Shown: one piece after another, positions 8,394-29,548 of the stretch
How positions within the stretch are numbered: the stretch's first letter is position 1
Layout: each line of letters begins with the position of its first letter
Assembly: GCA_048940445.1 (NCBI GenBank)
Contig: JBHLON010000014.1
Span: forward strand, 1 to 64,000
From: Promethearchaeota archaeon
Lineage (GTDB): Archaea; Asgardarchaeota; Lokiarchaeia; Sigyniarchaeales; SOKP01
Length of the DNA stretch: 64,000 nt
Direction: 5' to 3'
Program-made: the position numbers and the translations under genes
The notes under the pieces: generated by a model
Seen by the model: the letters and a program-made list of their open reading frames with translations, nothing else
What the model was told of the DNA's origin: nothing
Database searches by the model: none

Positions 8394-8549
8394 TAAAGAC
8401 TCCTCTATATAATAATCCCATTAAAACAATATGTGATAAATATTCACTTATCTAATGGTTTATTAAAATATAAATAAATTAATAAAATACTTCTATTTTA
8501 TAATTTTAATTTTTAAAATTTTTAGTATATTTTCATTTAATGGTATATT

Positions 8550-8660
8550 ATGCTAGTGTGTCAAACTTGTGGATCAATCATTTCTGGAAGAAATGAAGGA
8601 TATCATTATTGTTACGCGTGCCAGAAAATAACTTATCATCTGTCTTTCAGGTTTAAGTGA
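8550..8660 (+). CDS. 36-aa zinc-finger microprotein
   Basis: MLVCQTCGSIISGRNEGYHYCYACQKITYHLSFRFK*, two CxxC pairs; below the ORF-track cutoff. Confidence 0.55.
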   Translation: MLVCQTCGSIISGRNEGYHYCYACQKITYHLSFRFK

Positions 8661-8864
8661 TAGATGATCGCGAATAAAATAATATTAAAATAAAAAGTCT
8701 GGATGAGATTTATACTAAAAGATGTGGTATAAATTAACAACTTCGTGAGGGTGACTATCGTTGATTGAAATAAAGAACCTGAGTGTTATAATTGTGGGAG
8801 TTGTTTAAATGAAAAGAAATTTTTAAGGATCTTGTTAAGCGGAACTTAATAATAAGTAGAAAAT

Positions 8865-11294: not shown

Positions 11295-13076
11295 ATGAGT
11301 GTGAACCAGAAAGAACCAAAGAAAAAAACTCCTAAAAAAGTAATTATATCATTAAAAAAACGTCCTGTTATTGTGTATGGAATAATCGCTGTTATGGCTA
11401 TAGCTGGTGTGATTGGTGGTATATATCTTTTTACTGCACTCCCTAATTATCCTAACTTAATTATTGGTACATATGATGGGATTATGGGATCTCTTGATCC
11501 TTTTGATAACAATAATCCAATGAATCATGACATTACAAGTCAAATTGCTGAAGGTTTATTTGATTATGCGACAGCAAGCGATCAGCTAATTCATAATTTA
11601 GCAATAAACCATACCTGGAGTAATGATTATTTAAACCTTACTTGTAATCTTAGACAAGGTGTTAAATTTCATGACGAAACTGCTTTAAATGCTGCATCAG
11701 TTAAATGGAATTTTGATCGAATATGTAATCTTATGGATCTTAATATAAGCACTAGTTTTGCTAATGATTTTTGGTTATTTCCTAAAGAAAAAAGACTGGA
11801 AAAGGATGGAATAAGAATTCTCAATGAAACGCAAATTATAAATGATTATACGATTCGTTTTATACTAAACAAACCTTATACTCCATTTCTTGATTTATTG
11901 GCTTCTATATATGCATATATATATTCCCCAACATGTACTCCTTATGATGATTTTATTCCAATGGGTGGCATAATTGGAACAGGCCCTTTTATTTATGAAG
12001 TTTATATACAGCATGAAAAAATTATATTATCCTCTAATCCATCCTATTGGAGGGGACAACCTAAAATAAATAAATTAATTTTTCTAACTCTTAATAAGAC
12101 TGCTCGCTATGAAGCTTTATTAACAGGAGAAATTTCAATGCTTTGTGGTTATGATCATCGATATGATGCTACATCTGATTCTATTTATTATGATGATTCC
12201 ATTGATGTAGATTCATTCTTTAATCACCCTTCTGTTATCATTCAAGAAGGTCCACCCTTGTTCCAATTTACTTATCTAATCATGAACAATGAATTGATTA
12301 ATGTAACTATGAGAAAAGCAATTTCTTATGCTCTTAATTATTCATTAATCATTAACGAAATTATCAATGGACATGGAATAAGAGCGAAATCTCCAATCTC
12401 AGAGGGGATGCGATACTCAAACTTAACGGATATAAACTATCCTTACTATAATGTCTCCAAAGCAAGGCACGTTTTGAAAGATGCAGGATTGCATGGAACG
12501 AATAATTTGACTGCAAATGATAATGTAACTTCTGGAAATGAATGGGAAGTAAAGGCAAATAGTTTAACTCCTCTAGCGACCTATAATTTTACTCTCATAG
12601 AAAATGAAGGTTCTTTCTTACACACAATTTCTTTTCCGTTTCTGGTAAATGATCTTAAACAAATAGGAATTAAATTAGAACCAGCTATAATTTCTTGGGC
12701 AGAATTTAAATCTATTATTCGTGAAACAAGTGGTTATCATTTAAACATGATCAATTTTTTATTATTAGATACTAACGGTCCAAAATTGAATGATCCATCC
12801 ACTATAATCCAAGATTTATTCTTAAGTGGAGGTTTTGACAATATTGGTCAAGTTAATGACACTGCAACTCAGGATTTAATGGAGCTTGCTCTAGCAGAAC
12901 ATGATGAGAAAATAAGATCACAAATTTATTATGATATTCAAAAACATCTTGTTGAAGAAGTTTTTCCATCTTGCTACCTTTATCGGAAAAATTATTTAAG
13001 TATTTTCCGGTCTAACCTTAAAGGATGGCAAGTCCACCAGTTCAAGTCAAATTACAAGGATATTTTTTTTTACTAA
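11295..13076 (+). CDS. Family-5 (OppA/DppA-like) solute-binding protein, membrane-anchored, copy 1
   Basis: LRQGVKFHD..LNA..VKWNFDR, GTGPF, NP.YW, RKAISYA; basic N-terminus plus TM; many N-x-S/T sequons. Confidence 0.9.
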   Translation: MSVNQKEPKKKTPKKVIISLKKRPVIVYGIIAVMAIAGVIGGIYLFTALPNYPNLIIGTYDGIMGSLDPFDNNNPMNHDITSQIAEGLFDYATASDQLIHNLAINHTWSNDYLNLTCNLRQGVKFHDETALNAASVKWNFDRICNLMDLNISTSFANDFWLFPKEKRLEKDGIRILNETQIINDYTIRFILNKPYTPFLDLLASIYAYIYSPTCTPYDDFIPMGGIIGTGPFIYEVYIQHEKIILSSNPSYWRGQPKINKLIFLTLNKTARYEALLTGEISMLCGYDHRYDATSDSIYYDDSIDVDSFFNHPSVIIQEGPPLFQFTYLIMNNELINVTMRKAISYALNYSLIINEIINGHGIRAKSPISEGMRYSNLTDINYPYYNVSKARHVLKDAGLHGTNNLTANDNVTSGNEWEVKANSLTPLATYNFTLIENEGSFLHTISFPFLVNDLKQIGIKLEPAIISWAEFKSIIRETSGYHLNMINFLLLDTNGPKLNDPSTIIQDLFLSGGFDNIGQVNDTATQDLMELALAEHDEKIRSQIYYDIQKHLVEEVFPSCYLYRKNYLSIFRSNLKGWQVHQFKSNYKDIFFY

Positions 13077-14074
13077 TAATAATTCTTAAGATCTAACTTC
13101 AAAAAAAGTCCATTTGAGTTATTAATTAAAAGGTTGAAGTTCCCTTCTGCAGGATAATCATAAGATCTTAAATAATAAATATCTAGACCTGATGCAGGAA
13201 AATCTTCAAATCCTTCAACCTCATCGAGAGCTCGAGGAAAACCAAGATCATTTGCATTGTAATATAATACAAAATATGCGCCCACATCTAGGTTATCATC
13301 GTCATACTTAAAGCGAATATTTCCAATTTTATGAGAAATAATCCCTGAGATATTGGCATCCATGCCATTATGTTGAAAAATATCAATAAATATATCACCC
13401 TCCACAGCAGAAAGAAGTAAAGAAATATTTTGAATAGGTTGTAAGTTATAGGACTTAAAAAATAAATCTCCTTCATCTTGAATGATTCCAGTAATATTGC
13501 CTTTCAAAATACAATATGAAAAATCAAATTGAATATCACCTTTAGAAAGCTTAACTATTATATTTTCCACAGAAATCCCAAACGGAACAATTATCTGAGT
13601 ATCTCCTTGATCTTTAACTCTAATATCAATATCACAAATCGTATTTGCACTGATAAAAATTAAGACTTGAATGTTTTTGATCAAGGATAATACCTCTAAT
13701 AGGCTTATTTCTGGCTTGATTCTCATTGTAAAATTTACACACTCACTTATATTTTGCCAGTTAAAGTCAAAATAGTCTAAATATGACTTTCCTGCTAAAT
13801 CTAAACCAATCATTTCAATATTAATATCTAATTTCGCAAAATAATTAACTGGAGTTGTGATATATTCTAATTTAACATCTCCTATATCAATACCAATGCT
13901 TAGTTCTTCCATATTTGAGGGACTGCTAGGATTATATAAATATTGTAGCCTTTCGCTTATTTTACCTGAAGATGCAAGACTAGTTGAAAGAATAAAAATC
14001 GGTACCGAAAAAATGATGCTGAAGCTAAATATTATTCCTATAATTATATCTCTTATAGCTTTAGTTCGCATCAA
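13073..14074 (-). CDS. Membrane-anchored beta-solenoid protein (DUF4097-like), partner copy 1
   Basis: N-terminal TM; repeated I.I...GDI.I units; clear paralog of 17795-18796 and 28375-29427. Confidence 0.65.
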   Translation of the reverse strand: MMRTKAIRDIIIGIIFSFSIIFSVPIFILSTSLASSGKISERLQYLYNPSSPSNMEELSIGIDIGDVKLEYITTPVNYFAKLDINIEMIGLDLAGKSYLDYFDFNWQNISECVNFTMRIKPEISLLEVLSLIKNIQVLIFISANTICDIDIRVKDQGDTQIIVPFGISVENIIVKLSKGDIQFDFSYCILKGNITGIIQDEGDLFFKSYNLQPIQNISLLLSAVEGDIFIDIFQHNGMDANISGIISHKIGNIRFKYDDDNLDVGAYFVLYYNANDLGFPRALDEVEGFEDFPASGLDIYYLRSYDYPAEGNFNLLINNSNGLFLKLDLKNYY

Positions 14075-14178: not shown

Positions 14179-14203
14179 TTCGAATTTTGGGTGAAGTCTC
14201 GAA
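14179..14203. promoter_or_regulatory. Palindromic operator copy
   Basis: TTCGAATTTT-GGGTG-AAGTCTCGAA. Confidence 0.7.
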
Positions 14204-14276: not shown

Positions 14277-14301
14277 TTCGGACTTTGTGTAAAGTTTCGA
14301 A
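14277..14301. promoter_or_regulatory. Palindromic operator copy
   Basis: TTCGGACTTT-GTGTA-AAGTTTCGAA followed by gctaattctaaaaat. Confidence 0.75.
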
Positions 14302-15964: not shown

Positions 15965-17746
15965 TTGAGAGTTAAAATGTCATCAAAGAATAAAGGTTCA
16001 ATGAAAAAACCTCCCAAAAAGAAAATTAAAGTATTTAAAAAAAACCGAATTGTAATTTTTGGAATAGTGGGTTGCATAGCGTTAGCAGGAATTATTGGTG
16101 GAATAACAATCTTTTTATATTCACCAGAGGAAAAAATTTTATATATATCCTTTACAGATTTAGCTGTATGTACTTTAGGGATTGACCCACTTATAACTTG
16201 GGTACCAGCTGATTACGAGATAATTAATCAAGTTGCTGAAGGTTTATTTACGCATGATTCAGCTAATCAACAATCCCAAATAATTTATAACCTTGCCATA
16301 AATTATTCAAGGAATGAGGATGCTACAGAGTATATTTTTGAACTGAGACAAGGTGTTCAATTCCATGATGGAACACCATTTAATGCACCAGCGGTTCAAT
16401 GGAATATTGATAGAATATACACTTTAATTGCAAACGGTAAAATGCACTATACTTCAAAACAATTCTGGTTATTTTCCGATGGGACATGGATTATAAATCA
16501 TACTGAAATCATTAATGATTATAATATAAAGTTCATATTAAACAAGCCCTATATCCCCCTTACTGCATTATTAGCCTCTGTTAATGCATTCATGGTCTCA
16601 CCTACTTCAACTTCTCAAAATGATTTTATTTCACCAACAGAAATTTTAATCGGAACTGGTCCTTTTTTATTTGGTGTTTGGAATAAAAATCATAGCCTAG
16701 TACTCTCTTCCAATCCAAATTATTGGGGTGGTAAACCTCAGATTGATAAATTGATATTCAAGATTTATCCAACTCCAGAAGATAAATTCGAAGCATTACT
16801 TTCTGGAGAACTTTCAATGTTAAGTGGTTACAACGAATTACATAGTCATGCTCATTATTTGGATTCCCTCGGAATTTATGATAATGATGTCCTAGACACT
16901 TTTATAAACAATCCTGATGTAATAGTAGAAGAAGACCCTTCAGCGCCATTTTTTGATTACTTACTAATGAACAACGAATTAATTAATGTAACTATGAGAA
17001 AAGCAATATCTTATGCTTGTAATTACTCTGCTTATATAGATAAGTGGTTAAGTGGTCATGGAATAAGACTTAGATCTCCTATTCCAGAAGGTGTTTTATA
17101 CTCAAACACAACTAGTATTGAAGTTCCTTATTATAATATTTCAATAGCACGACAAACTCTAAAAGATGTTAATTGGAGCGGAGTTGCCGGGGCTTTGACT
17201 GCTGATGATAACGTTTCTGCAGGTAATCAATGGGAAAAATTAGTAGATGATGGAAAACCTTTAGAGACATATAATTTTACATACATAAGTGGTATGTTAA
17301 ATGGGATTGTCTTTTTAAATATAGTAACAGAAGATCTAAAGCAAATTGGAGTAAAGGTAGAAGGCGTTAGCATTACACTTGGAGAATATAATGAAATCTT
17401 TCACGAAAACTTAAATAGGGTTGAACTTTCACATATGGGTTATATTACGAGATTTAATGATCCTTGCAGTATTGTGAATATTTTATGTTCAAATAAAGCT
17501 TTAGATTTAAATTATTGTCAGGTTAATGATAATTCAACCCAAGATTTAATTGAACTTGCTCTAGCAGAAACTAATGAGGCTATAAGAGAACATTATTACT
17601 ATCAAATTCAAAGACGTTTAATTGAAAAAATATTCCCAATGTGTTACCTTTTTGAAAGAAATTTTTTTAGGATTTATAGATCCAATTTAAAAGGATTTGA
17701 GATTAACTATTTTAATCCTGTATACAAAGATATTCACTTTATCTAA
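15965..17746 (+). CDS. Family-5 solute-binding protein, copy 2
   Basis: LRQGVQFHDGTPFNA, GTGPF, RKAISYA; paralog of copies 1 and 3. Confidence 0.9.
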   Translation: MRVKMSSKNKGSMKKPPKKKIKVFKKNRIVIFGIVGCIALAGIIGGITIFLYSPEEKILYISFTDLAVCTLGIDPLITWVPADYEIINQVAEGLFTHDSANQQSQIIYNLAINYSRNEDATEYIFELRQGVQFHDGTPFNAPAVQWNIDRIYTLIANGKMHYTSKQFWLFSDGTWIINHTEIINDYNIKFILNKPYIPLTALLASVNAFMVSPTSTSQNDFISPTEILIGTGPFLFGVWNKNHSLVLSSNPNYWGGKPQIDKLIFKIYPTPEDKFEALLSGELSMLSGYNELHSHAHYLDSLGIYDNDVLDTFINNPDVIVEEDPSAPFFDYLLMNNELINVTMRKAISYACNYSAYIDKWLSGHGIRLRSPIPEGVLYSNTTSIEVPYYNISIARQTLKDVNWSGVAGALTADDNVSAGNQWEKLVDDGKPLETYNFTYISGMLNGIVFLNIVTEDLKQIGVKVEGVSITLGEYNEIFHENLNRVELSHMGYITRFNDPCSIVNILCSNKALDLNYCQVNDNSTQDLIELALAETNEAIREHYYYQIQRRLIEKIFPMCYLFERNFFRIYRSNLKGFEINYFNPVYKDIHFI

Positions 17747-17794
17747 CATATCTTAATAATCTTTCTATAAAATCAAATAAAATTAGAGCATTCT

Positions 17795-18796
17795 CTATGT
17801 GTTTTGGAGTTCTAACTCTTCATACATACCAATTGGAAAATTAAACAACAAATTATAATTATATTGTGCGGGATAATCATCGGAAGTCAAATGATAGACA
17901 TCTGTCCCATTTACTGTTGTCACATAATATGCAAAACCTACAAGTTCAGCAATTTTTTGATTAATAGCATAATCATCTGGGTGTACATATAATATAAAAT
18001 ATGCTCCAACTTCATCTGTATTGTCTATATAAGTTAATCGATAATTACCAGTAATTATTGTGATATTACCAATTATGTTAGCATTTGTAGCTTTAGTTTG
18101 AGAGATTTCAATATGGATATTACCCTTTTTAGTATAAAGCGTCCATGTACTATTTTGCGTGTATTTTATATCATAGTTTTTCATCTCAAGATCTCCTCTG
18201 TCATTGATAATAGCACTAATATTACCTTCTAAGAGACAGTAGAAAAAGTTATATTTGATATTACCTCTTGAAACATTAGCTTCTATATTCCCCACTGAAA
18301 CACCATATGGAACAGATATACGAGCACCTCCTTTAATGCTAACTCTGATATCAATATCATAAATTACATCTGCTTTTAGAGCTATATTTACATCAATACT
18401 CTTTATTAGGGATAGAATTTTAACTTTGTCTATACCTGTTTTTAAATTCATGGTGAAGTATAAAAGACTACTTGTATTCTGCCAAGCAATATTGAAATAA
18501 TCTAAATATGATTTTCCAGCTAAACTTTGGCCATTCATTTCAATACTTATATCTATTTTCGCATAATAACTAACTGGGTCAGTTATATATTCTATTTCAA
18601 CTTCCCCTATATCAATATCAATATTTAATCCATTCGAAAATGTAGGGGTGCTAGGATTATAATAGAACTGAATTGATTTATAAATGTTGCCAAAAGATGA
18701 GAGAGCTGTTGAAATAATAACGATAGGTATAGAAAAAATGATACTCAAACAAAATATAATCAATATAATAACAGTTTTAATAGCTTTATATGCCAT
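17795..18796 (-). CDS. Membrane-anchored beta-solenoid protein, partner copy 2
   Basis: Shares YNPS.P, IDIG.V..EYIT.PV.Y.AK.DI.IEM.G..LAGKSYLDYF and VP.G.SV.NI with copy 1. Confidence 0.65.
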   Translation of the reverse strand: MAYKAIKTVIILIIFCLSIIFSIPIVIISTALSSFGNIYKSIQFYYNPSTPTFSNGLNIDIDIGEVEIEYITDPVSYYAKIDISIEMNGQSLAGKSYLDYFNIAWQNTSSLLYFTMNLKTGIDKVKILSLIKSIDVNIALKADVIYDIDIRVSIKGGARISVPYGVSVGNIEANVSRGNIKYNFFYCLLEGNISAIINDRGDLEMKNYDIKYTQNSTWTLYTKKGNIHIEISQTKATNANIIGNITIITGNYRLTYIDNTDEVGAYFILYVHPDDYAINQKIAELVGFAYYVTTVNGTDVYHLTSDDYPAQYNYNLLFNFPIGMYEELELQNT

Positions 18797-19031: not shown

Positions 19032-19985
19032 GTGGTATTAATTTTTTGTTGTATATTTTACATTTCTCAGGGGCGTAAAAAAGAGATCCTACATGAAAAA
19101 ATATTGATGTATAGTTTTGCAAGTTTTTGGCTTAGTATTTCTTTAGCAAGAATATTTTATTATTTTTCTGATATATTTTTAGAAGGGACTTATTCAGGTG
19201 ATTTAAGCACACTTATTCTAACATATAATGTACTTAATTACATTTTTCTTTACTTTTATCTATATTCTCATATTTATATCTTAATTAGTATAATTATATT
19301 AAGTATTATGTTTATATGGTTTTCAATAAAGTCAAAAAAAGAATTCCAGTTAGTATCATCAGTAGTAGCCATTGGATTTACTATAGTTTTGATTGGATGG
19401 GTTTTTGAGACAATAGCATTAAAGCAATTAAATCTTATATCTCCAGTATTACCTTCAATTTTTATAATAGTGGGAACTATAACCGCAACAATTCCTCTAA
19501 TTGCAAATATTGAGTTCTTTTCAAGCAAATTAATTAATTGGTTAGTTTTAATTTCAATTATTCTGATCTTACTATTTTTTAGTTTAACCATTTTCACCAA
19601 TCTCCCACTAGTTCTTTTGAGTCAAATAATAATTTTAATTTCAACCTCTGTTTTAATTGTGGTGATCATTTATGTGACAATTTACATAATTAAGAGAACT
19701 AAAGTGTCAGAAGTTCAAGAAATAGTTCCAAAGGAGGAGCTTAAAGACTTTTTGAAGACTTTTATGAAACCCACTACTATTACTATCGAGGAAATTCAAT
19801 TATATAAAGAGAAAGGATTATGTTTAGTGTGCAAAAGTAAAGTTACACGGTTAAATTATATTTGTCCCAAATGCAATGCATTATATTGTTTAAAATGCTC
19901 AAGAGCATTAACTAATTTAGAAAATGGTTGCTGGGTCTGCGAGACCCCCTTTGATGAATCCAAACCTATGAAAATTTCTAAATAA
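19032..19985 (+). CDS. Multi-pass membrane protein with C-terminal C4C4 RING-like domain
   Basis: About 7 hydrophobic segments; C-x2-C-x10-C-x2-C-x4-C-x2-C-x10-C-x2-C at 19821-19940. The frame is open from 18969, so the start may be earlier. Confidence 0.75.
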   Translation: MVLIFCCIFYISQGRKKEILHEKILMYSFASFWLSISLARIFYYFSDIFLEGTYSGDLSTLILTYNVLNYIFLYFYLYSHIYILISIIILSIMFIWFSIKSKKEFQLVSSVVAIGFTIVLIGWVFETIALKQLNLISPVLPSIFIIVGTITATIPLIANIEFFSSKLINWLVLISIILILLFFSLTIFTNLPLVLLSQIIILISTSVLIVVIIYVTIYIIKRTKVSEVQEIVPKEELKDFLKTFMKPTTITIEEIQLYKEKGLCLVCKSKVTRLNYICPKCNALYCLKCSRALTNLENGCWVCETPFDESKPMKISK

Positions 19986-20010
19986 AATAATTAATAGAAA
20001 GGTAAAGTTT

Positions 20011-20220
20011 ATGATTGAATTATTGATATTACTGCTTATAATATTTTTGGCAATTCCTTATATTATATTATCTTTTATAACATTCTGGGTATATAAAGAT
20101 GCAAAAAAAAGAGATATGAATGTATTTGCTTGGATTTTGGTGATTTGGTTAATCCCCTTCTTTATTGGTTTAGTCATTTATTTAAAAATTAGAATACAAT
20201 ATTCTGTCACTAGGTTTTAA
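20011..20220 (+). CDS. Small two-TM membrane protein (PLDc_N-like)
   Basis: WVYKDAKKR.M...W...I..IP..GL.IYL pattern. Confidence 0.65.
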   Translation: MIELLILLLIIFLAIPYIILSFITFWVYKDAKKRDMNVFAWILVIWLIPFFIGLVIYLKIRIQYSVTRF

Positions 20221-20503
20221 TATTGTTATATTTTCCAAATTTCTTTCAAAGTCAACTTATTTATATTCTTTAGAATCCTGTTCAATAGAAAATTTTAAAA
20301 TTTTATCATTCGGAGGGCGACATTCTGGAATTTTTTTTGCTTCAATGTTCAAAAATCTTAACTCTTGACTCTTATCATTATGGACTTTGTTTTTTTTACT
20401 CAGCTCAATACACTCAAAATTTCAGTTAAAAATATACTTATATTAATTAATGTTAATATCTATAATAAAATTAATTACAATTATGTAAGGAATATTAATT
20501 TCG

Positions 20504-21520
20504 ATGTTAAAACCTCCTCAAATTTTATTTACCGGAGAAAATGGAGTTGGTAAAACCACTATCTTGAATTTATTTCCAGAAGATATTATTTTAGAATTAG
20601 ATGATAACTTTAATGAAATTTTTCAAAAGCAAGTTAATATTACTGGAACCAGAGGTATAGAACATTGTATTTTAAGAGAAATTGATTTAAGAGAATTAGT
20701 AGACAATTTTTTTTCTTTTCAAAAACTTTTACATACTATTGATATCATTCTCATTGTTACTGATTCAACTGAGCGAAATGTTAAATATACTTATGATTTA
20801 TTTTCTGAATTGAAATACAAATTACCTAAAATTGATTTTTACATAATTGCTAATTTTCAAGACAGAAAGTCAATCTCAATGCCCATAGAAAAAATGGAAT
20901 ATACATTAAAAGAGAAAGTTTTTGGATATTCAGCGATCCAAGAGGATTCAAAAGATTGTATAACTGAAATTATTAAAGAGATTTTAGAAATTTCTATTAT
21001 TAAAAAGCAAGGAAAAAAGCCTTCATTTGATAAAATTGATTACAATATAATTTGGTCAGACATAGAAGAAGCAAGATTGTTGGAAAAGAAAGGAGATCAT
21101 TATACAGCATCAAAAAAATTCTCAATTGCTGGATCTAAATTTAAAATACTAAATTCAAATGAAGAAAAAGAAGAATTCAAAGCATTATACAATTTGTGTA
21201 AAGCTTGGGAGTGTATAGAATTAGCTGAAGAATATGAAAATATTTCGAAGTTTGCTGAAGCTGTGAAATTTTTTGATCAAGCAATTGAATCTCTTTCTGA
21301 TGAGAAATTGAAATTATTAGTATCAGCTAATTTAATGCATTGTGAAGCTTTAAAATTAGGAATGGAGTCAGATATATCAGATCAACTGCATATTAAAGAA
21401 AGATTATATATAGAAATAATCGATTTAATTAACAAAGCAGTTAATTTATATAAAAGAGGAGGTTTTGAAAAAGAAGCAGAGTTTGCTTTAACTACCTTGA
21501 ATAAATTAAAGAGCCTTTAA
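20504..21520 (+). CDS. Divergent small (Arf/Rab-like) GTPase fused to helical repeat domain
   Basis: P-loop GENGVGKT, VTDS, G4-like ANFQD, G5-like YSA; no DxxG; TPR-like C-half. Confidence 0.7.
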   Translation: MLKPPQILFTGENGVGKTTILNLFPEDIILELDDNFNEIFQKQVNITGTRGIEHCILREIDLRELVDNFFSFQKLLHTIDIILIVTDSTERNVKYTYDLFSELKYKLPKIDFYIIANFQDRKSISMPIEKMEYTLKEKVFGYSAIQEDSKDCITEIIKEILEISIIKKQGKKPSFDKIDYNIIWSDIEEARLLEKKGDHYTASKKFSIAGSKFKILNSNEEKEEFKALYNLCKAWECIELAEEYENISKFAEAVKFFDQAIESLSDEKLKLLVSANLMHCEALKLGMESDISDQLHIKERLYIEIIDLINKAVNLYKRGGFEKEAEFALTTLNKLKSL

Positions 21521-21573
21521 TTGAGTAAAATTAAAATTTTAGTAAAATATCTTAAAACATTACAAGGATAAAA

Positions 21574-22068
21574 TTGACATTATTCGAAAAAGATTTTCTA
21601 TTTCCAGTATACATAGATAAAAATACTTTAAATCATATTGATGAATTATGCAAAAATTCTGATAGAGAAATTTTTGGCTATTTAATTGGTTTAATTTTAA
21701 AATGGAGAAAGAATAAATATATTGTTATAAAAGAACAGATTTATATTAAAAATACAGTTAGAAGTAATAAATTTAATACATCTCAAATTGAAGGAACTGC
21801 AGGAAAATATGAACAGGAATTTCAAAAGTTGAAATATGATATGGGGAACGAGAATTTACAAGTTATAGGATGGTGGCATTCTCATATCAATCTAGGTTGC
21901 TTCTTATCATTAACTGACATTCACACACAAGAATATTTTTTTCCCGAATCTTACCAAGTTGCTTTAGTAGTTGATCCCATTCGAGAGGAATTCAAATTTT
22001 TTACATTAGATAAAGGCTCAAAAAAGAAATACAAAACGCTAAGTTATGCTATTATATCTTCAACTTAA
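21574..22068 (+). CDS. JAB/MPN+ (JAMM) deubiquitinase
   Basis: REIFGYLIG ... VIGWWHSH....FLS.TD, ALVVDP: intact JAMM motif. Confidence 0.92.
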   Translation: MTLFEKDFLFPVYIDKNTLNHIDELCKNSDREIFGYLIGLILKWRKNKYIVIKEQIYIKNTVRSNKFNTSQIEGTAGKYEQEFQKLKYDMGNENLQVIGWWHSHINLGCFLSLTDIHTQEYFFPESYQVALVVDPIREEFKFFTLDKGSKKKYKTLSYAIISST

Positions 22069-22085
22069 CAATTTAGTTTATATCT

Positions 22086-22967
22086 ATGAGTAAGAAAGAA
22101 AATAAAGGAATTAAAGTGATTGGAACTGATTCCATAGATTCAGATAGATTCGATCGCCAAAAGAGAATTATTGGTTGGGATCAAACTACTATTTCTAATG
22201 CGACAATCATGGTAATTGGTGCTGGAGCTACTGGAAATGAAGTTGTAAAAAACTTAGCTTTAGTTGGAGTTGGAAAAATATTTTTAATTGATTTTGATTT
22301 CATTCAAACTTCAAATTTAAGTCGTTGTGTGTTGTTTAACCCTAAAGCAGCAAAAGATAGAGAATACAAAGCAGATGTTATTAAAGATGTATGCAGAGAC
22401 TTAAATCCTGATGTTGAGGTTGTTTCAATTAAAAAAGACTTAAATTCAATAGATAAAACCCTTTATAGCAAGTGTAATGTAATATGCTCTTGCTTAGACA
22501 ATCTTGAAGCACGAATTGAAGCTAACAATTATGCATACTATAATCGAATTCCTTTTGTTGATTCTGGGATTGACGAATTTTTTGGTTCCGTTCAAGCAGT
22601 ATATTCAGAAGTTGAAAATTCAGCTTGTTTGCAATGTGGTATATCAGAAAAAGATTTGGATTTAATGTGGAAAAAATTTTCTTGTACTGGAGAGGAAATA
22701 AAGTCTGAAGAAGGTGAAACCACAAGAAAAATAGCAACAATCGTAACAACTACTTCAATAATAAGCGGTATTCAATCTCAGCAGGTTCTAAAATTTTTAC
22801 TTGGAATGAATTATTATAAGGAAGATAAGAAATGGAATCCTTATATTGGAGAACCCTTAGTTGGAAAACAATTAATTTATAATGGTCTAACAAACAGTTT
22901 CAGCATTATTGATAAACTAAAAGATCCAAAGTGTTGGACTTGCTCATATAAAAAATTTAAGATTTAA
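22086..22967 (+). CDS. Ubiquitin-activating E1 enzyme (ThiF/UBA-like)
   Basis: RFDRQ, GAGATG, D.DFI..SNLSR, CLDN.EAR, CLQC, catalytic-position FSCT, C-terminal CWTC. Confidence 0.92.
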   Translation: MSKKENKGIKVIGTDSIDSDRFDRQKRIIGWDQTTISNATIMVIGAGATGNEVVKNLALVGVGKIFLIDFDFIQTSNLSRCVLFNPKAAKDREYKADVIKDVCRDLNPDVEVVSIKKDLNSIDKTLYSKCNVICSCLDNLEARIEANNYAYYNRIPFVDSGIDEFFGSVQAVYSEVENSACLQCGISEKDLDLMWKKFSCTGEEIKSEEGETTRKIATIVTTTSIISGIQSQQVLKFLLGMNYYKEDKKWNPYIGEPLVGKQLIYNGLTNSFSIIDKLKDPKCWTCSYKKFKI

Positions 22968-22984
22968 ATTAAGAGGACATATAG

Positions 22985-23503
22985 ATGCCAGAATTACCTT
23001 TTGAGATATGGAAAGAAAGAGTAAATAATGAGATAAAGATTCTAAGTACCATTAACCTTGTTGAAAATAAATCTATAGCATGGTATGATAATAGTGTAGA
23101 ATTATGGATTAATTTAAGTGCCTTTGGATTTATTAAAGGAGAAAGTGAAGGAGGTATCAATGTAAAGCCTCAGATGAATCACCGAATTCTCATTAAAATA
23201 AATAGATCCTTTCCATATCCTGGAGGGATTGATTTTGCTTGGTATTCAAATATATTTCATCCAAATATTCATCCCATTGAGTTAGAAGGATTGAAAAGGA
23301 TAGGGACCGGTTATATATGTTTAAATATTTTAAGGCAATGGACAAAATTATCAGATTTGGAAACTACAGTAAAGTCTCTAGAAAAATTAGTAGAGAATCC
23401 CAATCCAGAGGACCCCCTCCAATATGATATTTGTATCGAAGCAGCTGAATTTTTTAAAAGAAATTCAATCCAAAAACTTAAAAAAATTTACAACGTGAAA
23501 TAA
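22985..23503 (+). CDS. Ubiquitin-conjugating E2 enzyme
   Basis: FPYP, IFHPNI, GYICLNIL..W, L..PNPEDP. Confidence 0.92.
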   Translation: MPELPFEIWKERVNNEIKILSTINLVENKSIAWYDNSVELWINLSAFGFIKGESEGGINVKPQMNHRILIKINRSFPYPGGIDFAWYSNIFHPNIHPIELEGLKRIGTGYICLNILRQWTKLSDLETTVKSLEKLVENPNPEDPLQYDICIEAAEFFKRNSIQKLKKIYNVK

Positions 23504-23529
23504 GATGAGCCTATATATGTTAAATAAGA

Positions 23530-23784
23530 TTAACCTCCTATAACTTTTGTCCATAACATTAAAATATCATACTCTTTTAGCCCAAATTTGTGTATTGCCT
23601 CCTTAATTGATATCGTATTTGGCAATTCCTTTTCTTTGTACACTAAAGCATAAGAACGTTGTTCTGAGCTTATAAACCCCATATGTTTGACAACAATTTC
23701 TATAATCCGTTCTATTATATGGTGTTCCTTTACATCTAACTTTATTCTTTTGCCCGTTCTGGTATCTTCTATTGATAATTTCAT
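23530..23784 (-). CDS. Ubiquitin-like protein, mature C-terminal GG
   Basis: 84 aa, beta-grasp-like pattern, ends VIGG-stop, convergent with E2. Confidence 0.88.
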   Translation of the reverse strand: MKLSIEDTRTGKRIKLDVKEHHIIERIIEIVVKHMGFISSEQRSYALVYKEKELPNTISIKEAIHKFGLKEYDILMLWTKVIGG

Positions 23785-23848
23785 TTTTATTCTGATTTTT
23801 CTTTTAAAGACAAATAAATTTATTCAACTAATAATTTTTAGTTTTGAG

Positions 23849-23873
23849 TTCGAAACTTTTCACAAAGTTCGAA
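23849..23873. promoter_or_regulatory. Palindromic operator copy upstream of the ubiquitin gene
   Basis: Minus strand reads TTCGAACTTT-GTGAA-AAGTTTCGAA then ctcaaaactaaaaat. Confidence 0.75.
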
Positions 23874-23880
23874 TTAGTTA

Positions 23881-25176
23881 TTATTCTTGTTCTTTCAACT
23901 TTTTATTAATTTCATCCAATATCTTATATTTTGGAAAATCTTTTAGAATTGAAGTTAAAATGGTTTTTTCTCTTTTAATTCTGTCATAATCCTCTAATTT
24001 TAGGTTAATTATATTTTGAAAAGCTAAACCCTTAAACTTATCTACTAAATCATCTGAAATTGTTTCTTTTTGATATTTCCCAAATAAGAAATTGATGTAA
24101 TCAGGTAGAAATTTCTTTAGAGGTGATTTTATATTTCTATCAAATAGTTTATCAGAAATGTCATTTAAAATATTGTCTAATAAATCTACGGTTTGTGAAT
24201 TTCTTTCTTCTTTAGAGATGTCAGGTTGTAATCTTTTGAGATAACTAAACTTTAGAATGTTCTCATCTATAATTAAATGCAGCATTTTATCAATTTTGTC
24301 ATCTTCTCGAAAACAATATACCATCTCATCATTAAATCTTAAATTGAAAAATTTTGAACCATATAAATTCTCTTCAGTAATCTTTTGCACACAAAAAGTA
24401 AGTGTAGCTAGCTTAATATTATATTTAAGAGCGAAATTTTCTTGTGAAATATATTCTGGATATCGACTTGGATGATTTATAGAAAGAAACAATAATATTT
24501 TATAAAAATCTTCTTTTGATGGGAGTATATTCTCAATGACGCTATAATTAAAATGATTAATTAAATCAAGAAGTAAAATTTCTATTAGGTTATCTTCGAT
24601 ATCCTGCTCCTTAAGAAACTTTCTGGCATTTTCTTTGATACTTTCTATCTTATCTATCTCTTCTTCTAAAATTGATTGATAATCTAATTGATATTTTTTC
24701 AGCATTTTATTATATCGTTCCTCACCGACCTTAGTGATTCTGTATTCCATATTTTCGCTATCGACAAAACCTTTTTTCATTAAAAGATTTAAATATTTTG
24801 ATAGAGAATTATGATTGAGAGAAAGAGGCTTTTCAATAAAATCTGACCACTTTAAATAGTCGTTATTAAATAACATCCACAAGATGATATGAACATAATT
24901 TCTCTTGTTCAAAATGATCTCTGGAGGATATCTTAATTTTCTCTCAAATGAGTCTTTAAATTTCAAATCTATATATCTTTTCTTACCTTCAGTAGTAGCT
25001 ACATAAACTCCTTTACTCTTTTTCCCAACATAGCCGTTTGAAATTAATAATTTCATATATTTAGACAATGTAGCTAGGCTGATTTCTAGTGGCTTATCTA
25101 AAAAGACAGACCAATTACACTCCTCATTATTATTTAGCATCCAGAGGATTATATATTCAAAATCTTTCTTCTCCAT
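23881..25176 (-). CDS. Tandem winged-HTH transcriptional regulator
   Basis: Two repeats of IILWML.NN....WS.F..KPL.....LSKY...L...G.V......Y..T..G; the true start is probably upstream of 25176. Confidence 0.75.
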   Translation of the reverse strand: MEKKDFEYIILWMLNNNEECNWSVFLDKPLEISLATLSKYMKLLISNGYVGKKSKGVYVATTEGKKRYIDLKFKDSFERKLRYPPEIILNKRNYVHIILWMLFNNDYLKWSDFIEKPLSLNHNSLSKYLNLLMKKGFVDSENMEYRITKVGEERYNKMLKKYQLDYQSILEEEIDKIESIKENARKFLKEQDIEDNLIEILLLDLINHFNYSVIENILPSKEDFYKILLFLSINHPSRYPEYISQENFALKYNIKLATLTFCVQKITEENLYGSKFFNLRFNDEMVYCFREDDKIDKMLHLIIDENILKFSYLKRLQPDISKEERNSQTVDLLDNILNDISDKLFDRNIKSPLKKFLPDYINFLFGKYQKETISDDLVDKFKGLAFQNIINLKLEDYDRIKREKTILTSILKDFPKYKILDEINKKLKEQE

Positions 25177-25410: not shown

Positions 25411-25439
25411 CTGTTTCTTGGAATAATAAGTGGAAGATA

Positions 25440-25464
25440 TTCTAAGTTCGCTAAAGGTTTCGAA
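25440..25464. promoter_or_regulatory. Palindromic operator copy
   Basis: TTCTAAGTTC-GCTAA-AGGTTTCGAA then cttaaatctaaaaat. Confidence 0.7.
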
Positions 25465-25555
25465 CTTAAATCTAAAAATAAAGATTAAGCATAATAACCA
25501 ATTGACACAAATTTGCCAAAAAAGAAAAATAAATAACAAAAAAGGATGAAAAAAA

Positions 25556-26603: not shown

Positions 26604-28313
26604 ATGATTAAAATGATAGAAAAAGCTTCTTCTAAAAAAAGATTTCCTAATATCAAAGAATTCAAGAAAATAATCATAGTTGGAGGGTCAATAATAAGCT
26701 TAGCGATAGTTGGGATTATAAGTGGAATTATTATTATGGGAGAGATCCCGCAAGGAGGTATTCTTAAAGTAGGTATAACTAAACCTATTGGAGAAATTGA
26801 CCCTCTTATGTATAGCTTTTCTTCAGAAGAAATAGTAATTAATCATGTTACCGAGACGTTATTTGATAATATTTATATAGGTGGTAAATCTCAAACTCTT
26901 CCTCATCTAGCATTAGATGGAAATTGGAGTTCGGACTACCTAAATTTCACATGCACACTTAGAAAGAATGTCATGTTCCATGACGGAACGCCATTTAATG
27001 CTGCAGCTGTTAAATGGAACTTCGATAGAATTACTCAAATTATCGATTCATCACTTCTATCTTGGTATTTGTGGGGTTACCTATTTTTTTTACCAGATGG
27101 GCGCTGGATTGTAAATAAAACTCTAGTCTTAGATTCCCATATTGTAAAATTTGTTTTAAATGATGTTTTTGTACCTTTTCGAGAATTATTAACTCATAGT
27201 ACTACAAGTATTTTATCACCATCATCAACCCCTGCGGATAAACCCCTAAATACACACATTGATAATTTAGTTGGAACCGGTCCTTTTATATATGATGGTT
27301 ATGAACCTAATGTCAATATGTCATTATCTCCTAATCAGGATTACTGGGGAACAAAACCTGAAATTGATAAGGTAATTTTAAAGTTTTATTCTCCAACTAA
27401 TGATACTAATCGTATTAACATTTTATGGAATGCGCTTTTAGCAGGAGAAATTCATATAGTAGACCGGGACTTTATTAAATTTTTAATAAGGTTCTATCCA
27501 GAAAGATCTATCGAACTCCTTAAAGGTGTTGCAGGAATTACAGTTCAACAAAAGCCTACTATAAGCTATTTTTATGTTTTTTTTTATCCTAAACTTATTA
27601 ATAGTACAATGAGAAAGGCAATATCTTATGCAATTAACTATTCTAATATCCTTGAAATAGTTCCTAACTCTATAACAGCCAGATCCCCAATTCCAGAAGG
27701 TATCCCTTACTCTAACATTACTGGTATTGACATTCCTTATTATAACATTTCAAAAGCAAGACAAATGTTAATTGACGAAGGTTGGCCTGGAACAGCGGGT
27801 TTAACGGCAAATGACAATATTACAGCAGGAAACGAATGGGAACAATTAGTAACTAATGGATTCCCTCTTGCTATATATAATTTATCTTATTATCCAGGGA
27901 ATCCATACAATGAATTACCACCAATTCCTTTTCCAGAAAATCTTAAACAACTTGGAGTCAATGTATCATGTCAACCAATTTGGAGTGGTGCTCCGTCTCA
28001 ACTTGAAACATTAATGTGGATGTATGACTATAACGATCCACACACTGGTATGCTTGATTATCATTCAAAATGGACTTTATGGACCGACTTTAATGTTAGT
28101 GTATTAGATGAATTGATAGAAGAAGGAATTAAGGAGACAAATCCTGTTTTAAGAGAAGCGATATACTATAATATTCAAAAACTTATAATCGAGGAAATTT
28201 GTCCTGTTATATTTACTCTCTCTCCACGAAATTTAGATATATATGCATCAAATTTAATAGGTTGGCAAATTTATCCATTCAAAATAGTATTTAAAACAGT
28301 TTATTTCGTCTAA
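26604..28313 (+). CDS. Family-5 solute-binding protein, copy 3
   Basis: FHDGTPFNAAAVKWNFDR, GTGPF, RKAISYA, LTANDNITAGNEWE. Confidence 0.9.
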   Translation: MIKMIEKASSKKRFPNIKEFKKIIIVGGSIISLAIVGIISGIIIMGEIPQGGILKVGITKPIGEIDPLMYSFSSEEIVINHVTETLFDNIYIGGKSQTLPHLALDGNWSSDYLNFTCTLRKNVMFHDGTPFNAAAVKWNFDRITQIIDSSLLSWYLWGYLFFLPDGRWIVNKTLVLDSHIVKFVLNDVFVPFRELLTHSTTSILSPSSTPADKPLNTHIDNLVGTGPFIYDGYEPNVNMSLSPNQDYWGTKPEIDKVILKFYSPTNDTNRINILWNALLAGEIHIVDRDFIKFLIRFYPERSIELLKGVAGITVQQKPTISYFYVFFYPKLINSTMRKAISYAINYSNILEIVPNSITARSPIPEGIPYSNITGIDIPYYNISKARQMLIDEGWPGTAGLTANDNITAGNEWEQLVTNGFPLAIYNLSYYPGNPYNELPPIPFPENLKQLGVNVSCQPIWSGAPSQLETLMWMYDYNDPHTGMLDYHSKWTLWTDFNVSVLDELIEEGIKETNPVLREAIYYNIQKLIIEEICPVIFTLSPRNLDIYASNLIGWQIYPFKIVFKTVYFV

Positions 28314-28374
28314 TATATGCCATGCACATTGGTCTAAAAAACCATAAACAAATTAAAAAATTTTTAACATGATT

Positions 28375-29427
28375 TTATTCAAATAATGAGGGTATACTTG
28401 TCAGATCCATGTCAAAATCTCCCTCTAGGATTTCAAACCTGATATTGTAATAGTACTTAACAATGTTTGCTAGTAAATCATCTGATGTAAAATAAAAAAT
28501 GCCCTCATATGTAGTTTGTGCAATACGATTGAAATCAAAACCATCTACAAGCGTACATATGAGACCAGGAACCTGCAATAAACAAGTAGGAAATCCACTT
28601 TTATCCATGAATTCTCCTCCGTAGGGAATTTCAAGCATTGCACCAATATCAGCGCTGTTATCCTTATAGTAAATAAAAATATCTCCTTTATTAACTTTGA
28701 ATATCCCTGTTGTGTTAGCACCAATATCTCTATATTGAAAAACTTCAATGTCTATATTACCCTCTCTAGTGTTTATGTCCCAACTACTATTTTGAGCATA
28801 TTGCACATCATTTGACTTGAAAATCAAATTTCCATTATTTATAGTTCCAATTATGTTTCCTTGAATTGAACAGTGCTCAAAATTGTACAAAATATTTCCA
28901 TTGGAGACGTTTGTTAATAAATCTCTAAAGGAAACGCCATAAGGAATAGTTATTTCAAAGTTTCCTTTAGTTAGATTGGTAATAATATCAAATACAATAT
29001 CTTTTCTAATATTTACAACAATACTTATTTCTTTCTTTAACCAATATAGTGGATTAAACCAATCATCCGATATAATTTTCAATTTAAGATTTATCTGAGA
29101 ACTTGAGTTGTTCCATGAAATGTTCAAATAATCATCAAATGATTTACCAACTAAGTTTTCTCCAATTAAAGCAATATTTACGTCTATTAATACAAAATAA
29201 TCAACTGGTGGATTAATATATCTTATTTCTATATTACCCTCATCAGCATCAATATATAACTTTTCAATAGATGATGGTGAGCTTGGTTCATATATAAAAG
29301 AACGAGATTCGTTAATATGGTCATACAATGAGGATCTGAATGAAAGTAATTGGATTGGAATAATTATCATAAGAGAACCCCATAAAATAACCAATATAAC
29401 TACTCCAACTATACTTTTTTTCGCCAT
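28375..29427 (-). CDS. Membrane-anchored beta-solenoid protein, partner copy 3
   Basis: YEPSSPS, PV.YF..IDVNI...G..L.GKS..DY, IPYGVS, GNI repeats. Confidence 0.65.
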   Translation of the reverse strand: MAKKSIVGVVILVILWGSLMIIIPIQLLSFRSSLYDHINESRSFIYEPSSPSSIEKLYIDADEGNIEIRYINPPVDYFVLIDVNIALIGENLVGKSFDDYLNISWNNSSSQINLKLKIISDDWFNPLYWLKKEISIVVNIRKDIVFDIITNLTKGNFEITIPYGVSFRDLLTNVSNGNILYNFEHCSIQGNIIGTINNGNLIFKSNDVQYAQNSSWDINTREGNIDIEVFQYRDIGANTTGIFKVNKGDIFIYYKDNSADIGAMLEIPYGGEFMDKSGFPTCLLQVPGLICTLVDGFDFNRIAQTTYEGIFYFTSDDLLANIVKYYYNIRFEILEGDFDMDLTSIPSLFE

Positions 29428-29523: not shown

Positions 29524-29548
29524 TTCGAACTTTGCGCGAAGTTTCAAA
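29524..29548. promoter_or_regulatory. Palindromic operator copy
   Basis: TTCGAACTTT-GCGCG-AAGTTTCAAA then gtcaaatctaaaaat. Confidence 0.75.

Follow-up and report, generated by a model that had tools for sequence, protein, structure and literature searches.

A 64,000-nucleotide stretch of a Lokiarchaeal genome (Promethearchaeota archaeon, GenBank assembly GCA_048940445.1, contig JBHLON010000014.1, positions 1 to 64,000, forward strand), here called the window, carries the genes of a ubiquitin-like conjugation system next to a gene encoding a 7-transmembrane (TM) protein with eight Cys residues at its C-terminus. This protein, termed TM-Cys8 here, was evaluated as a candidate membrane-anchored E3 of that system. 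The analysis covers window positions 19032-23784, with the neighboring genes described on to 25176 (Table 1). The source is a metagenome-assembled genome (MAG) of 3.64 Mb that is 93% complete, in which the window represents one contig (C110). The relatives found bear the NCBI names Promethearchaeota or Promethearchaeia, i.e., Lokiarchaeia-type Asgard archaea.

In the region 19032-25176, the + strand encodes the 7-TM protein, a 2-TM protein, a P-loop protein, a JAB protein, an E1 and an E2. The - strand encodes an 84-aa ubiquitin-like (Ubl) protein, whose gene converges on that of the E2, and a 431-aa tandem winged-helix protein. All genes named in a preliminary description of this DNA were found in the open reading frame (ORF) list of the window at the positions given there, and the catalytic features that it reported were confirmed. 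The JAMM motif (E32, H102, H104, S112 and D115) was invariant in 36 orthologs, the crossover-loop Cys (C200) and Zn sites (C181, C184, C283 and C286) of the E1 in 37 orthologs and the HPN (residues 92-94) and C112 of the E2 in 38 orthologs, and the Ubl ends with VIGG just ahead of the stop codon. Two genes between the TM protein and the JAB, encoding the 69-aa 2-TM protein and a 338-aa GTPase-like/TPR protein, were absent from that description. Its statement that no soluble RING gene is present holds for the cluster; it does not hold for the genome, where RING-H2 genes above the Pfam cut-off were found on contigs C2, C32 and C10, one of them within a 683-aa ORF.

Table 1. Genes and sites of the TM-Cys8/Ubl locus (window coordinates)
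Feature	Position	Strand	Properties
TM-Cys8 protein	19032..19985	+	317 aa; 7 TM, predicted N-out/C-in; C-terminal domain of predicted C4C4 RING fold; candidate membrane-anchored E3
Cys8 zinc-finger core	19821..19940	+	C264 to C303; predicted RING-type beta-beta-alpha unit
Small 2-TM protein	20011..20220	+	69 aa; directly 3' of the TM-Cys8 gene
Arf/Roc-like P-loop small-GTPase domain with C-terminal TPR/MIT-like helical domain	20504..21520	+	338 aa
JAMM/MPN+ metalloprotease (Rpn11-like)	21574..22068	+	Pfam JAB E 6e-11
Short E1-like adenylating enzyme	22086..22967	+	293 aa; Pfam ThiF E 7e-46
Divergent E2 (UBC fold) with HPN and catalytic Cys	22985..23503	+	UQ_con 40.5 bits (cut-off 27)
Ubl modifier	23530..23784	-	84 aa; VIGG immediately before the stop codon
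Palindromic operator-like site	23849..23873	.	25 bp; Ubl promoter region; common to other window genes
Tandem winged-helix protein (HTH_45/HTH_34, Sso10a-like)	23881..25176	-	Pfam and NCBIfam matches; probable regulator of the Ubl gene

The Cys8 domain and the 7-TM protein

The Cys spacing of the C-terminal domain, C-x2-C-x10-C-x2-C-x4-C-x2-C-x10-C-x2-C, was found to be exactly as reported in the preliminary description (C264 to C303, nt 19821-19940), and all eight Cys were invariant in alignments of 20 and 66 homologs. The pattern fits the RING consensus C-x2-C-x(9-39)-C-x(1-3)-[CH]-x(2-4)-C-x2-C-x(4-48)-C-x2-C, and the C4-C5 gap of four residues is that of C4C4 RINGs such as CNOT4. A look for co-loss of ligands, which bears on cross-brace versus sequential zinc binding, found a substituted Cys in only 1 of 46 family sequences. 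Profile models for RING, C1 and double zinc ribbon (DZR) domains all matched the window protein, every one below its curated cut-off. Prok-RING_1 matched three of the 46 family members weakly (best E 0.003), while Prok-RING_2 and Prok-RING_4 matched no member at E 0.01. A profile search of the PDB with the Cys8 family yielded nothing significant, the RINGs of RBBP6, p44 and MGRN1 appearing at E 1.9-8.3.

As the sequence profiles were ambiguous, the last 82 residues were folded with AlphaFold2 (46-sequence alignment). The resulting domain model has a mean predicted local distance difference test score (pLDDT) of 85, with values >90 across the finger, and shows two short strands, which immediately precede C3 and C5, and a helix of ten residues from C5/C6 (domain residues 52-61). 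The predicted topology is therefore that of a RING/treble-clef beta-beta-alpha unit, unlike two sequential zinc ribbons. When the model was compared with the PDB by Foldseek, all 40 rows shown were RING-containing proteins or complexes or U-box domains, with probabilities up to 0.99 and E-values that were non-significant, as is usual at 50 residues. VIA-align, which is independent of Foldseek and was run against 48,161 representative chains, gave a top 50 composed almost entirely of RING and U-box domains at Z 4.0-5.4; one small ribosomal protein and two arenavirus Z RING proteins were also among them. The structural neighbors include Nse1, the CesA RING, GATOR2, RNF213, HRD1, TFIIH p44, RNF4, Rad18, TRAF6 and CNOT4. 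RING and U-box matches recurred when the full-length model was used as the Foldseek query, and no double zinc ribbon was found in the VIA-align top 50 or among the listed Foldseek matches. The weight of this structural evidence lies in the uniformity of the match list and its recurrence with the full-length model, not in the scores. The preliminary description had named a double zinc ribbon without cross-brace as the fold that would speak against its reading; the structure prediction for 19821-19940 returned a RING-type beta-beta-alpha unit with RING/U-box neighbors instead.

Besides the Cys, the invariant residues of the finger include V266 (before C2), L293 (in the helix, at C6+4) and W301 (C7+1). 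We take these to be the three E2-contact positions of canonical RINGs of the c-Cbl-UbcH7 type.

The preliminary description had counted about seven TM segments, and this agrees with hydrophobicity and with a full-length AlphaFold2 model (66-sequence alignment, pLDDT 78), in which seven long helices are followed by a disordered linker (residues 227-242) and then the finger. Counted from the sequence, 11 Lys and Arg residues fall in the predicted inside loops and one outside; this basic face is made up of the segment C-terminal to TM7 and of the loops that follow TM1, TM3 and TM5. This strong positive-inside bias, together with the seven helices, suggests an N-out/C-in orientation, which would place the RING-fold domain on the cytosolic face, the same side as the E1, E2 and Ubl. 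In an external loop, the motif EGTYxGD (G52, Y54, G56 and D57) shows almost no variation. No specific relative of the TM bundle was found in the PDB: Foldseek with the full-length model matched only the RING part, and the VIA-align matches of the bundle were generic helical bundles (S1-S4 of TRP channels and designed bundles) with Z scores reaching 9.4, among which the Hrd1 complex, at Z 7.1, was one of hundreds that scored similarly.

The TM-Cys8 reading frame is open 5' of the GTG at 19032, from approximately 18972, and this stretch contains no ATG, GTG or TTG. Close orthologs (P0001) have about 16 extra N-terminal residues that match the upstream translation. Therefore, the true start probably lies upstream of 19032, and the gene probably begins at an unusual, non-canonical codon.

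The Ubl conjugation genes and their companions

Among solved structures, the E1 comes closest to eukaryotic UBA1 and UBA6, in their active adenylation domains (E 1e-25 to 1e-21), with weaker matches to MoeB (8e-15), UBA5 (1e-12) and bacterial BubCD (7e-9). The nearest solved relatives of the E2 are Rad6/Ubc2, Ubc13 and UbcH5; its N-terminal helix is invariant in the 38 orthologs along with H92, P93, N94 and C112. The JAB is nearest to the Rpn11-like protein of Caldiarchaeum and to Rpn11, and probably represents the enzyme that matures the Ubl and removes it from conjugates. By these sequence comparisons, the E1, E2 and JAB are of the eukaryote-like type.

In the Ubl, V[IV]GG was found in 47 of 47 orthologs and is followed by 0-9 variable residues; 10 orthologs end exactly at GG. 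A GG followed by short tails is the signature of a conjugatable modifier that is matured by a protease. The Ubl showed a weak match to TUG-UBL1 (E 9e-4) and no match to the Pfam ubiquitin model at E 0.01. The features that define eukaryote-like archaeal ubiquitin systems, i.e., separate E1, E2 and JAMM proteins and a modifier ending in GG, were all found, with the beta-grasp fold of the modifier suggested by the weak TUG-UBL1 match. Given the invariant catalytic residues and the universal GG, a functional cascade is plausible. The idea that the Ubl is UFM1-like, taken from PMC12962969, was considered and is unlikely: the E2 has a canonical HPN, and the best matches of the E1 are UBA1 and UBA6, with UBA5 weaker.

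The same genome also carries a canonical set. Contigs C70 and C52 hold E2 genes scoring about 90 bits, C70 (1-2731) additionally a JAB and part of an E1, and C62 and C68 the canonical ubiquitin genes, with an E1 beside them. The presence of canonical ubiquitin, E1, E2 and RING-H2 genes elsewhere in the genome marks the window locus as a second, divergent Ubl system with its own RING type. This locus is best explained as a lineage-specific second Ubl conjugation system of one Lokiarchaeal family.

The P-loop protein belongs to a group whose GTPase domain adjoins the JAB in nearly all loci. In the window protein, matches were found to TIGR00231 small_GTP (E 0.0015) and TPR_IF140-IFT172 (E 4e-5), and a profile of 25 orthologs matched Arl5, Arl8, Arl3 and Arf1 in the PDB (E 7e-4 to 0.02). 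Pfam Roc and Arf matched 23 and 9 of the 25 orthologs, respectively, below cut-off. The motifs G1 (GENGVGKT, for GxxGxGKT), G4 (NFQD, for NxxD) and G5 (SAI) are present, and a conserved REIDL stands in place of G3 (DxxG). The orthologs are mostly about 300 aa long and have an N-terminal domain of about 125 residues that bears weak longin signals (Fuz_longin_1 in 3 of 25, best E 5e-4; Longin in 4 of 25; atlas score 0.84). The window protein is without this longin-like domain and has a TPR/MIT-like tail in its place.

The small 2-TM gene is conserved immediately 3' of TM-Cys8 genes orthologous to that of the window; by tblastn, it was found beside the TM-Cys8 gene in loci L005, L008-L010, L012, L040, L046-L049 and most of L060-L087; its product has no significant Pfam match.

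Upstream of the Ubl start, at a distance of 65-89 bp, lies a 25-bp palindrome, TTCGAACTTTG-N4-AAGTTTCGAA. Four copies were found in the window (14179-14203, 14277-14301, 23849-23873 and 29524-29548), compared to 0 expected, in addition to a weaker copy at 25439-25479; a shared block of 42 nt was confirmed. Copies also precede two + strand genes, with starts at 14420 and 29618, and the weaker copy precedes a gene starting at 25556. The same dyad was found upstream of the Ubl in 14 other loci, each of which has a tandem winged-helix gene adjoining the Ubl; the background frequency is 0.1 per kb. The palindrome is probably the operator of the tandem winged-helix regulator, which would control transcription of the Ubl gene.

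Distribution and gene neighborhood of the TM-Cys8 family

The neighborhoods were analyzed from two sides, with 40 loci fetched around E2 and Ubl matches and 79 loci from species-representative genomes fetched around TM-Cys8 matches (from the best 80 of 173 matches); module genes were located in all fetched loci by tblastn. All 79 loci on the TM-Cys8 side are from MAGs and none is from a cultured organism. The TM-Cys8 family comprises about 130 clusters at 90% identity, all named ones being from Promethearchaeota or another Asgard candidate phylum. In a sample of 301 Asgard genomes, it is essentially confined to one GTDB family, where it is present in 42 of 68 genomes, often in at least six copies. 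The window-type E2 and Ubl were found in 34 and 35, respectively, of 71 genomes of the same Lokiarchaeal family. All 44 Cys8 ORFs examined (43 from the loci other than the 79 of the TM-Cys8 side, plus the one of the window) are polytopic TM proteins of 301-405 aa with a C-terminal finger. With the finger alone as a query, 920 representatives at 50% identity were obtained and, among the matches listed, most are 350-410 aa long with the finger at the C-terminus.

A TM-Cys8 gene was found within 3.6 kb of 31 of the 39 evaluable Ubl genes, usually 120-500 bp away; a further six Ubl genes sit at contig ends. Seen from the other side, a Ubl gene lies within 6 kb of the TM-Cys8 gene in 32 of 79 loci; among the 29 loci whose TM-Cys8 gene is of the subfamily orthologous to that of the window, the number is 24. 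As genomes of about 2-5.5 Mb hold 1-3 Ubl genes, we estimate the linkage expected by chance at about 1% or less.

This linkage is preserved in at least six different gene orders and also where the flanks are unrelated. In arrangement A, which is that of the window, the genes for TM-Cys8, the small TM protein, the GTPase-TPR protein, JAB, E1 and E2 are followed by convergent Ubl and winged-helix genes. In arrangement B, TM-Cys8, the small TM protein and Ubl precede an inverted E2-E1-JAB-GTPase block. Arrangement C, found in L009 with wholly unrelated flanks, consists of TM-Cys8, the small TM protein, JAB, E1, E2, a convergent Ubl and then a GTPase-TIR gene. Arrangement D contains TM-Cys8, the small TM protein, the GTPase-TPR protein and convergent Ubl and winged-helix genes, without E1, E2 and JAB; the winged-helix gene adjoins the Ubl in both A and D. 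Arrangement E places TM-Cys8 genes whose TM domains cannot be aligned, in some cases as tandems of two or three, beside a Ubl-E2-E1-JAB-GTPase block, and in arrangement F (L064) an inverted E2-E1-JAB block lies 5' of the TM-Cys8 gene.

Cassettes without E1, E2 and JAB that keep the linkage were found in L005 and L047-L051. The complete genome CP070831.1 carries two such satellite cassettes in tandem (L005:2112-6272 and L005:8001-11086), with no E1, E2 or JAB in the fetched stretch. In each of the arrangement-D genomes that could be checked (G117, G129 and G189), one full locus was found elsewhere. The preliminary description had proposed a check of gene neighborhoods, and had named a lack of association with ubiquitin operons as an observation that would speak against its reading. 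Given the linkage across rearranged loci, the association was instead found to be strong and repeated. The caveat that similar TM and Cys8 proteins may be scattered paralogs proved partly apt, as about 40 of the 79 loci hold orphans.

L007:8001-10423, an example of the orphan branch, contains two tandem TM-Cys8 paralogs of about 400 aa whose tblastn identity to the window protein is approximately 31-32%; up to a distance of 8 kb, Ubl, E1, E2 and GTPase genes were all absent. In the two L005 cassettes, the first GTPase copy begins past the P-loop and the second winged-helix gene is shortened to 136 aa. L046:9414-11307 (G213:C76) is a decayed module without an E1, in which a truncated E2 match with an in-frame stop abuts the JAB, and L039:1280-5331 is an interrupted module with approximately 2.7 kb between E2 and E1. 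In the window, three paralogous cassettes flank the Ubl locus (11295-14074, 15965-18796 and 26604-29427), each composed of a family-5 solute-binding protein gene (569-593 aa) that is tail-to-tail with a gene for a membrane-anchored protein (333-350 aa). The same pair also precedes the TM-Cys8 gene in L005, L008, L010 and L012.

Proposed function, alternatives and comparison with known systems

Taken with its predicted RING fold and its linkage to the Ubl gene, the 7-TM protein is, on balance, probably a membrane-anchored E3 or E3-like adaptor of this Ubl system, and the ligase role appears to be the most likely one. No better candidate for a prokaryotic ubiquitin ligase embedded in the membrane was found in this analysis. 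By analogy with the known enzyme families, the short E1 would adenylate the Ubl at its GG end and hand it over via Cys200 to the E2 (HPN, Cys112). The JAMM protease would trim the tails after the GG of most orthologous pro-Ubls and probably also strip conjugates. The 7-TM protein would display its C4C4 RING-fold domain in the cytosol and so bring the E2~Ubl to membrane-proximal targets, and several TM-Cys8/Ubl cassettes of one genome could be served by a single E1-E2-JAB set. The Arf-like GTPase, a constant neighbor, probably gates or localizes the reaction, and the winged-helix protein probably sets the Ubl supply through the palindromic operator. The analysis itself shows the gene content, the conservation of the catalytic residues and of the linkage, and a predicted fold and topology, whereas E2 binding, ligase activity, the targets and the roles of the GTPase and of the small TM protein are what we infer here. 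A fuller model, in which the 7-TM RING protein, the Arf-like/longin GTPase and the dedicated E1, E2, deubiquitinase and Ubl form a receptor-like, GTPase-gated membrane E3 module that ubiquitylates membrane or envelope proteins, is offered tentatively, as a possibility that we hold to be more doubtful than the E3 role itself.

A number of observations weigh against a ligase role. The E1 is short (293 aa) and has no recognizable ubiquitin-fold domain for E2 recruitment. The TM-Cys8 gene sits by the Ubl gene and not by that of the E2, a position that would also suit a Ubl receptor or a Ubl substrate. No TM-Cys8 gene was found within 3.6 kb of 8 of the 39 evaluable Ubl genes (about one fifth), and about 40 of the 79 TM-Cys8 loci hold orphan paralogs without a nearby Ubl (e.g., L006 and L007). 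With regard to the finger, the match of the window protein to Pfam zf-C3HC4_3 (E 5.6e-4, 20.1 bits) is under the cut-off of 27, and over 46 members C1_2 matched 24, zf-C3HC4_3 14, DZR 14 and DZR_2 six at E<0.01, where for the members other than the window protein the best E-values are given, down to 1e-6 (zf-C3HC4_3 best 8e-6). The sequence profiles are thus ambiguous and by themselves do not place the Cys8 domain. The structural Z scores of 4-5.4 are modest, as expected of a 50-residue domain. Finally, many active RINGs carry an Arg or Lys "linchpin" after C8, and the corresponding residue of the window protein is the acidic E304.

The conjugation genes could also belong to an archaeal conflict or defense system that uses Ubl conjugation, with the 7-TM RING protein as a membrane sensor or effector and the GTPase carrying variable effector domains. 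This explanation, which is compatible with E3 activity, is considered unlikely, although the module may serve in conflict or defense. In its favor are effector-like fusions of the GTPase that are typical of conflict systems: in L009 a GTPase-like protein is fused to TIR (8520-9410, + strand; TIR_2 E 1e-14), and L013:5486-7861 (+ strand) and L029:14151-16766 (- strand) encode fusions of GTPase, TPR and CN_hydrolase/nitrilase that match defense models for reverse transcriptase-nitrilase systems (PADLOC E 8e-14). These fusions are a minority, however, and the GTPase of the window carries TPR repeats only. The patchy presence of the module (34-35 of 71 genomes of a single family), the tandem and scattered expansions of TM-Cys8 paralogs, the frequent rearrangement and some decayed copies would also fit a defense role. 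Among PADLOC models, the E1 (E 7e-15) and the JAB (E 2e-6) show generic and weak matches to the E1-E2 and JAB models of the cyclic oligonucleotide-based antiphage signaling system (CBASS), but the E2, the Ubl and TM-Cys8 have no PADLOC match, and BubCD and MoeB are more distant from the E1, E2 and JAB than the eukaryotic and Caldiarchaeum enzymes are. Moreover, the operator of the Ubl promoter is common to other genes of the window, which looks more like physiology than immunity.

A non-ligase partner seems improbable as well. In this case, TM-Cys8 would be a membrane receptor or anchor for the Ubl or the GTPase, or the main conjugation substrate, and the finger would be an interaction module. 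That the gene stays with the Ubl even in cassettes without E1, E2 and JAB is in line with this, as are the absence of a linchpin residue after C8, the many paralogs unlinked to any Ubl and the fact that many RING-like binuclear fingers (p44, B-box, C1 and PHD) are not ligases. Yet the structural neighbors of the finger are overwhelmingly E2-binding RING and U-box domains, the canonical E2-contact positions are invariant hydrophobics, the module contains no other E3 candidate, and several RING paralogs per E1/E2 set represent the eukaryotic E3 pattern. That the Cys8 motif is a generic double zinc ribbon carried by an unrelated membrane protein, its adjacency to the ubiquitin genes being due to chance or to synteny among close relatives, is very hard to credit: the symmetric spacing (CxxC-x10-CxxC twice) is what such a domain would show and sub-threshold DZR (14 of 46) and DZR_2 (6 of 46) matches exist, but the model predicts a ten-residue helix from C5/C6, the structural neighbors are RING/U-box domains with no DZR entry in the top 50, and the linkage is kept across six or more gene orders, in unrelated flanks and with TM domains that have diverged beyond alignment.

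The candidate E3 and its companions can be compared with several known systems. Reconstitution has been achieved for eukaryote-like archaeal ubiquitin cascades whose RING E3s are small and soluble (10.1101/2023.07.25.550441; PMC9192718), and an operon with ubiquitin, E1, E2, small RING and Rpn11 genes is reported for Caldiarchaeum subterraneum by Hennell James 2017, as cited in 10.1101/2023.07.25.550441. Like that operon and the canonical Asgard operons, the window locus clusters separate E1, E2, JAMM and Ubl-GG genes, with a protein of predicted RING fold included, and its enzymes have UBA1, Rad6/Ubc13 and the Caldiarchaeum Rpn11-like protein as nearest solved relatives. By contrast, the putative RING of the window is a C4C4 domain on the C-terminus of a 7-TM protein, whereas theirs are RING-H2, small and soluble; the window E1 has only 293 aa and the Ubl is missed by the Pfam ubiquitin model. 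Linkage to ESCRT was not found here, and the Arf-like GTPase, the small 2-TM protein and the winged-helix regulator are additional.

Eukaryotes have many polytopic membrane RING ligases, such as Hrd1, Doa10/MARCH, the RNF family and Pex2/10/12 (PMC4021871). Like these ligases, TM-Cys8 has a multi-pass TM bundle followed by a RING that is predicted to be cytosolic, and the RING domains of HRD1 and Pex proteins are structural neighbors of the window finger. The ligand pattern is C4C4, unlike those of Hrd1 (RING-H2) and MARCH/Doa10 (RING-CH, C4HC3), and VIA-align detected no similarity of the TM region to Hrd1/MARCH-type ligases beyond generic helical bundles. Cdc48/Derlin-type neighbors were not found among the genes surveyed. 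The analogy with the MARCH ligases and those of endoplasmic reticulum-associated degradation (ERAD) that the preliminary description had drawn, like its proposal that membrane or secretory proteins are the targets, found no support here; the TM bundle matches no known ligase specifically and the pattern is neither RING-H2 nor RING-CH.

With the C4C4 RINGs of CNOT4 and TFIIH p44/Ssl1, the finger shares eight Cys ligands and the four residues from C4 to C5. Structural matches include p44 (8ebs_E at Z 5.0, also 5nus and 7o4k) and CNOT4 (1ur6 at Z 4.1). The window finger differs in its x10/x10 loops and its context, and by sequence it is not significantly related to them (p44 at E 4.2 in the PDB profile search). 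Within TFIIH, p44 serves mainly as a structural subunit.

Burroughs, Iyer and Aravind reportedly described, in 2011, prokaryotic RING/B-box-like treble-clef families (Prok-RING_1 to 4), some of them membrane-linked and near Ubl/JAB genes. The passage of PMC4506424 that cites Burroughs 2011 ties prokaryotic B-box-like fingers to membrane-protein stability. TM-Cys8 resembles the Prok-RING concept in that a prokaryotic RING-like finger is found amid Ubl, E1, E2 and JAB genes. Unlike the Prok-RING families, it is restricted to Promethearchaeota, has its own 7-TM domain and a GTPase partner and shows few and weak Prok-RING_1 matches. The locus further shares with the Bil/Bub systems and with Cap2-Cap3 of CBASS the logic of an E1/E2/JAB/Ubl operon, a patchy distribution and effector-like fusions at some loci. 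Unlike in those systems, the enzymes are nearer to eukaryotic proteins than to BubCD, and E1 and E2 are separate genes. To our knowledge, a RING-fold component and a GTPase are not parts of Bil/Bub or CBASS systems.

Membrane ubiquitylation, as in ERAD, endocytic sorting and organelle quality control, is regarded as a eukaryotic trait, and the archaeal RING ligases that the searched literature has characterized are small and soluble. No description of TM-Cys8 in Asgard archaea was found in that literature, where a mention in earlier surveys of prokaryotic RINGs is possible. Nor was a description found, for archaea, of a polytopic C4C4 RING protein as a fixed Ubl neighbor, of an Arf-like/longin GTPase partner or of satellite RING-Ubl cassettes. 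The proposed role is directly testable, since the parts are small and the RING domain is soluble. Taking into consideration that the module is restricted to one Lokiarchaeal family and that the TM region has no detectable homology to Hrd1 or MARCH, the resemblance to these ligases points to analogy rather than ancestry, and the module may be a lineage-specific invention and not an ancestor of the eukaryotic enzymes. If the fuller, GTPase-gated model is true, the module would be the first prokaryotic counterpart of the eukaryotic membrane RING ligases, and ubiquitylation would already be coupled to small-GTPase/longin trafficking components in an archaeon. Should the module work as proposed, the prokaryotic relatives of eukaryotes would have ubiquitin ligation that is anchored in the membrane and coupled to small GTPases.

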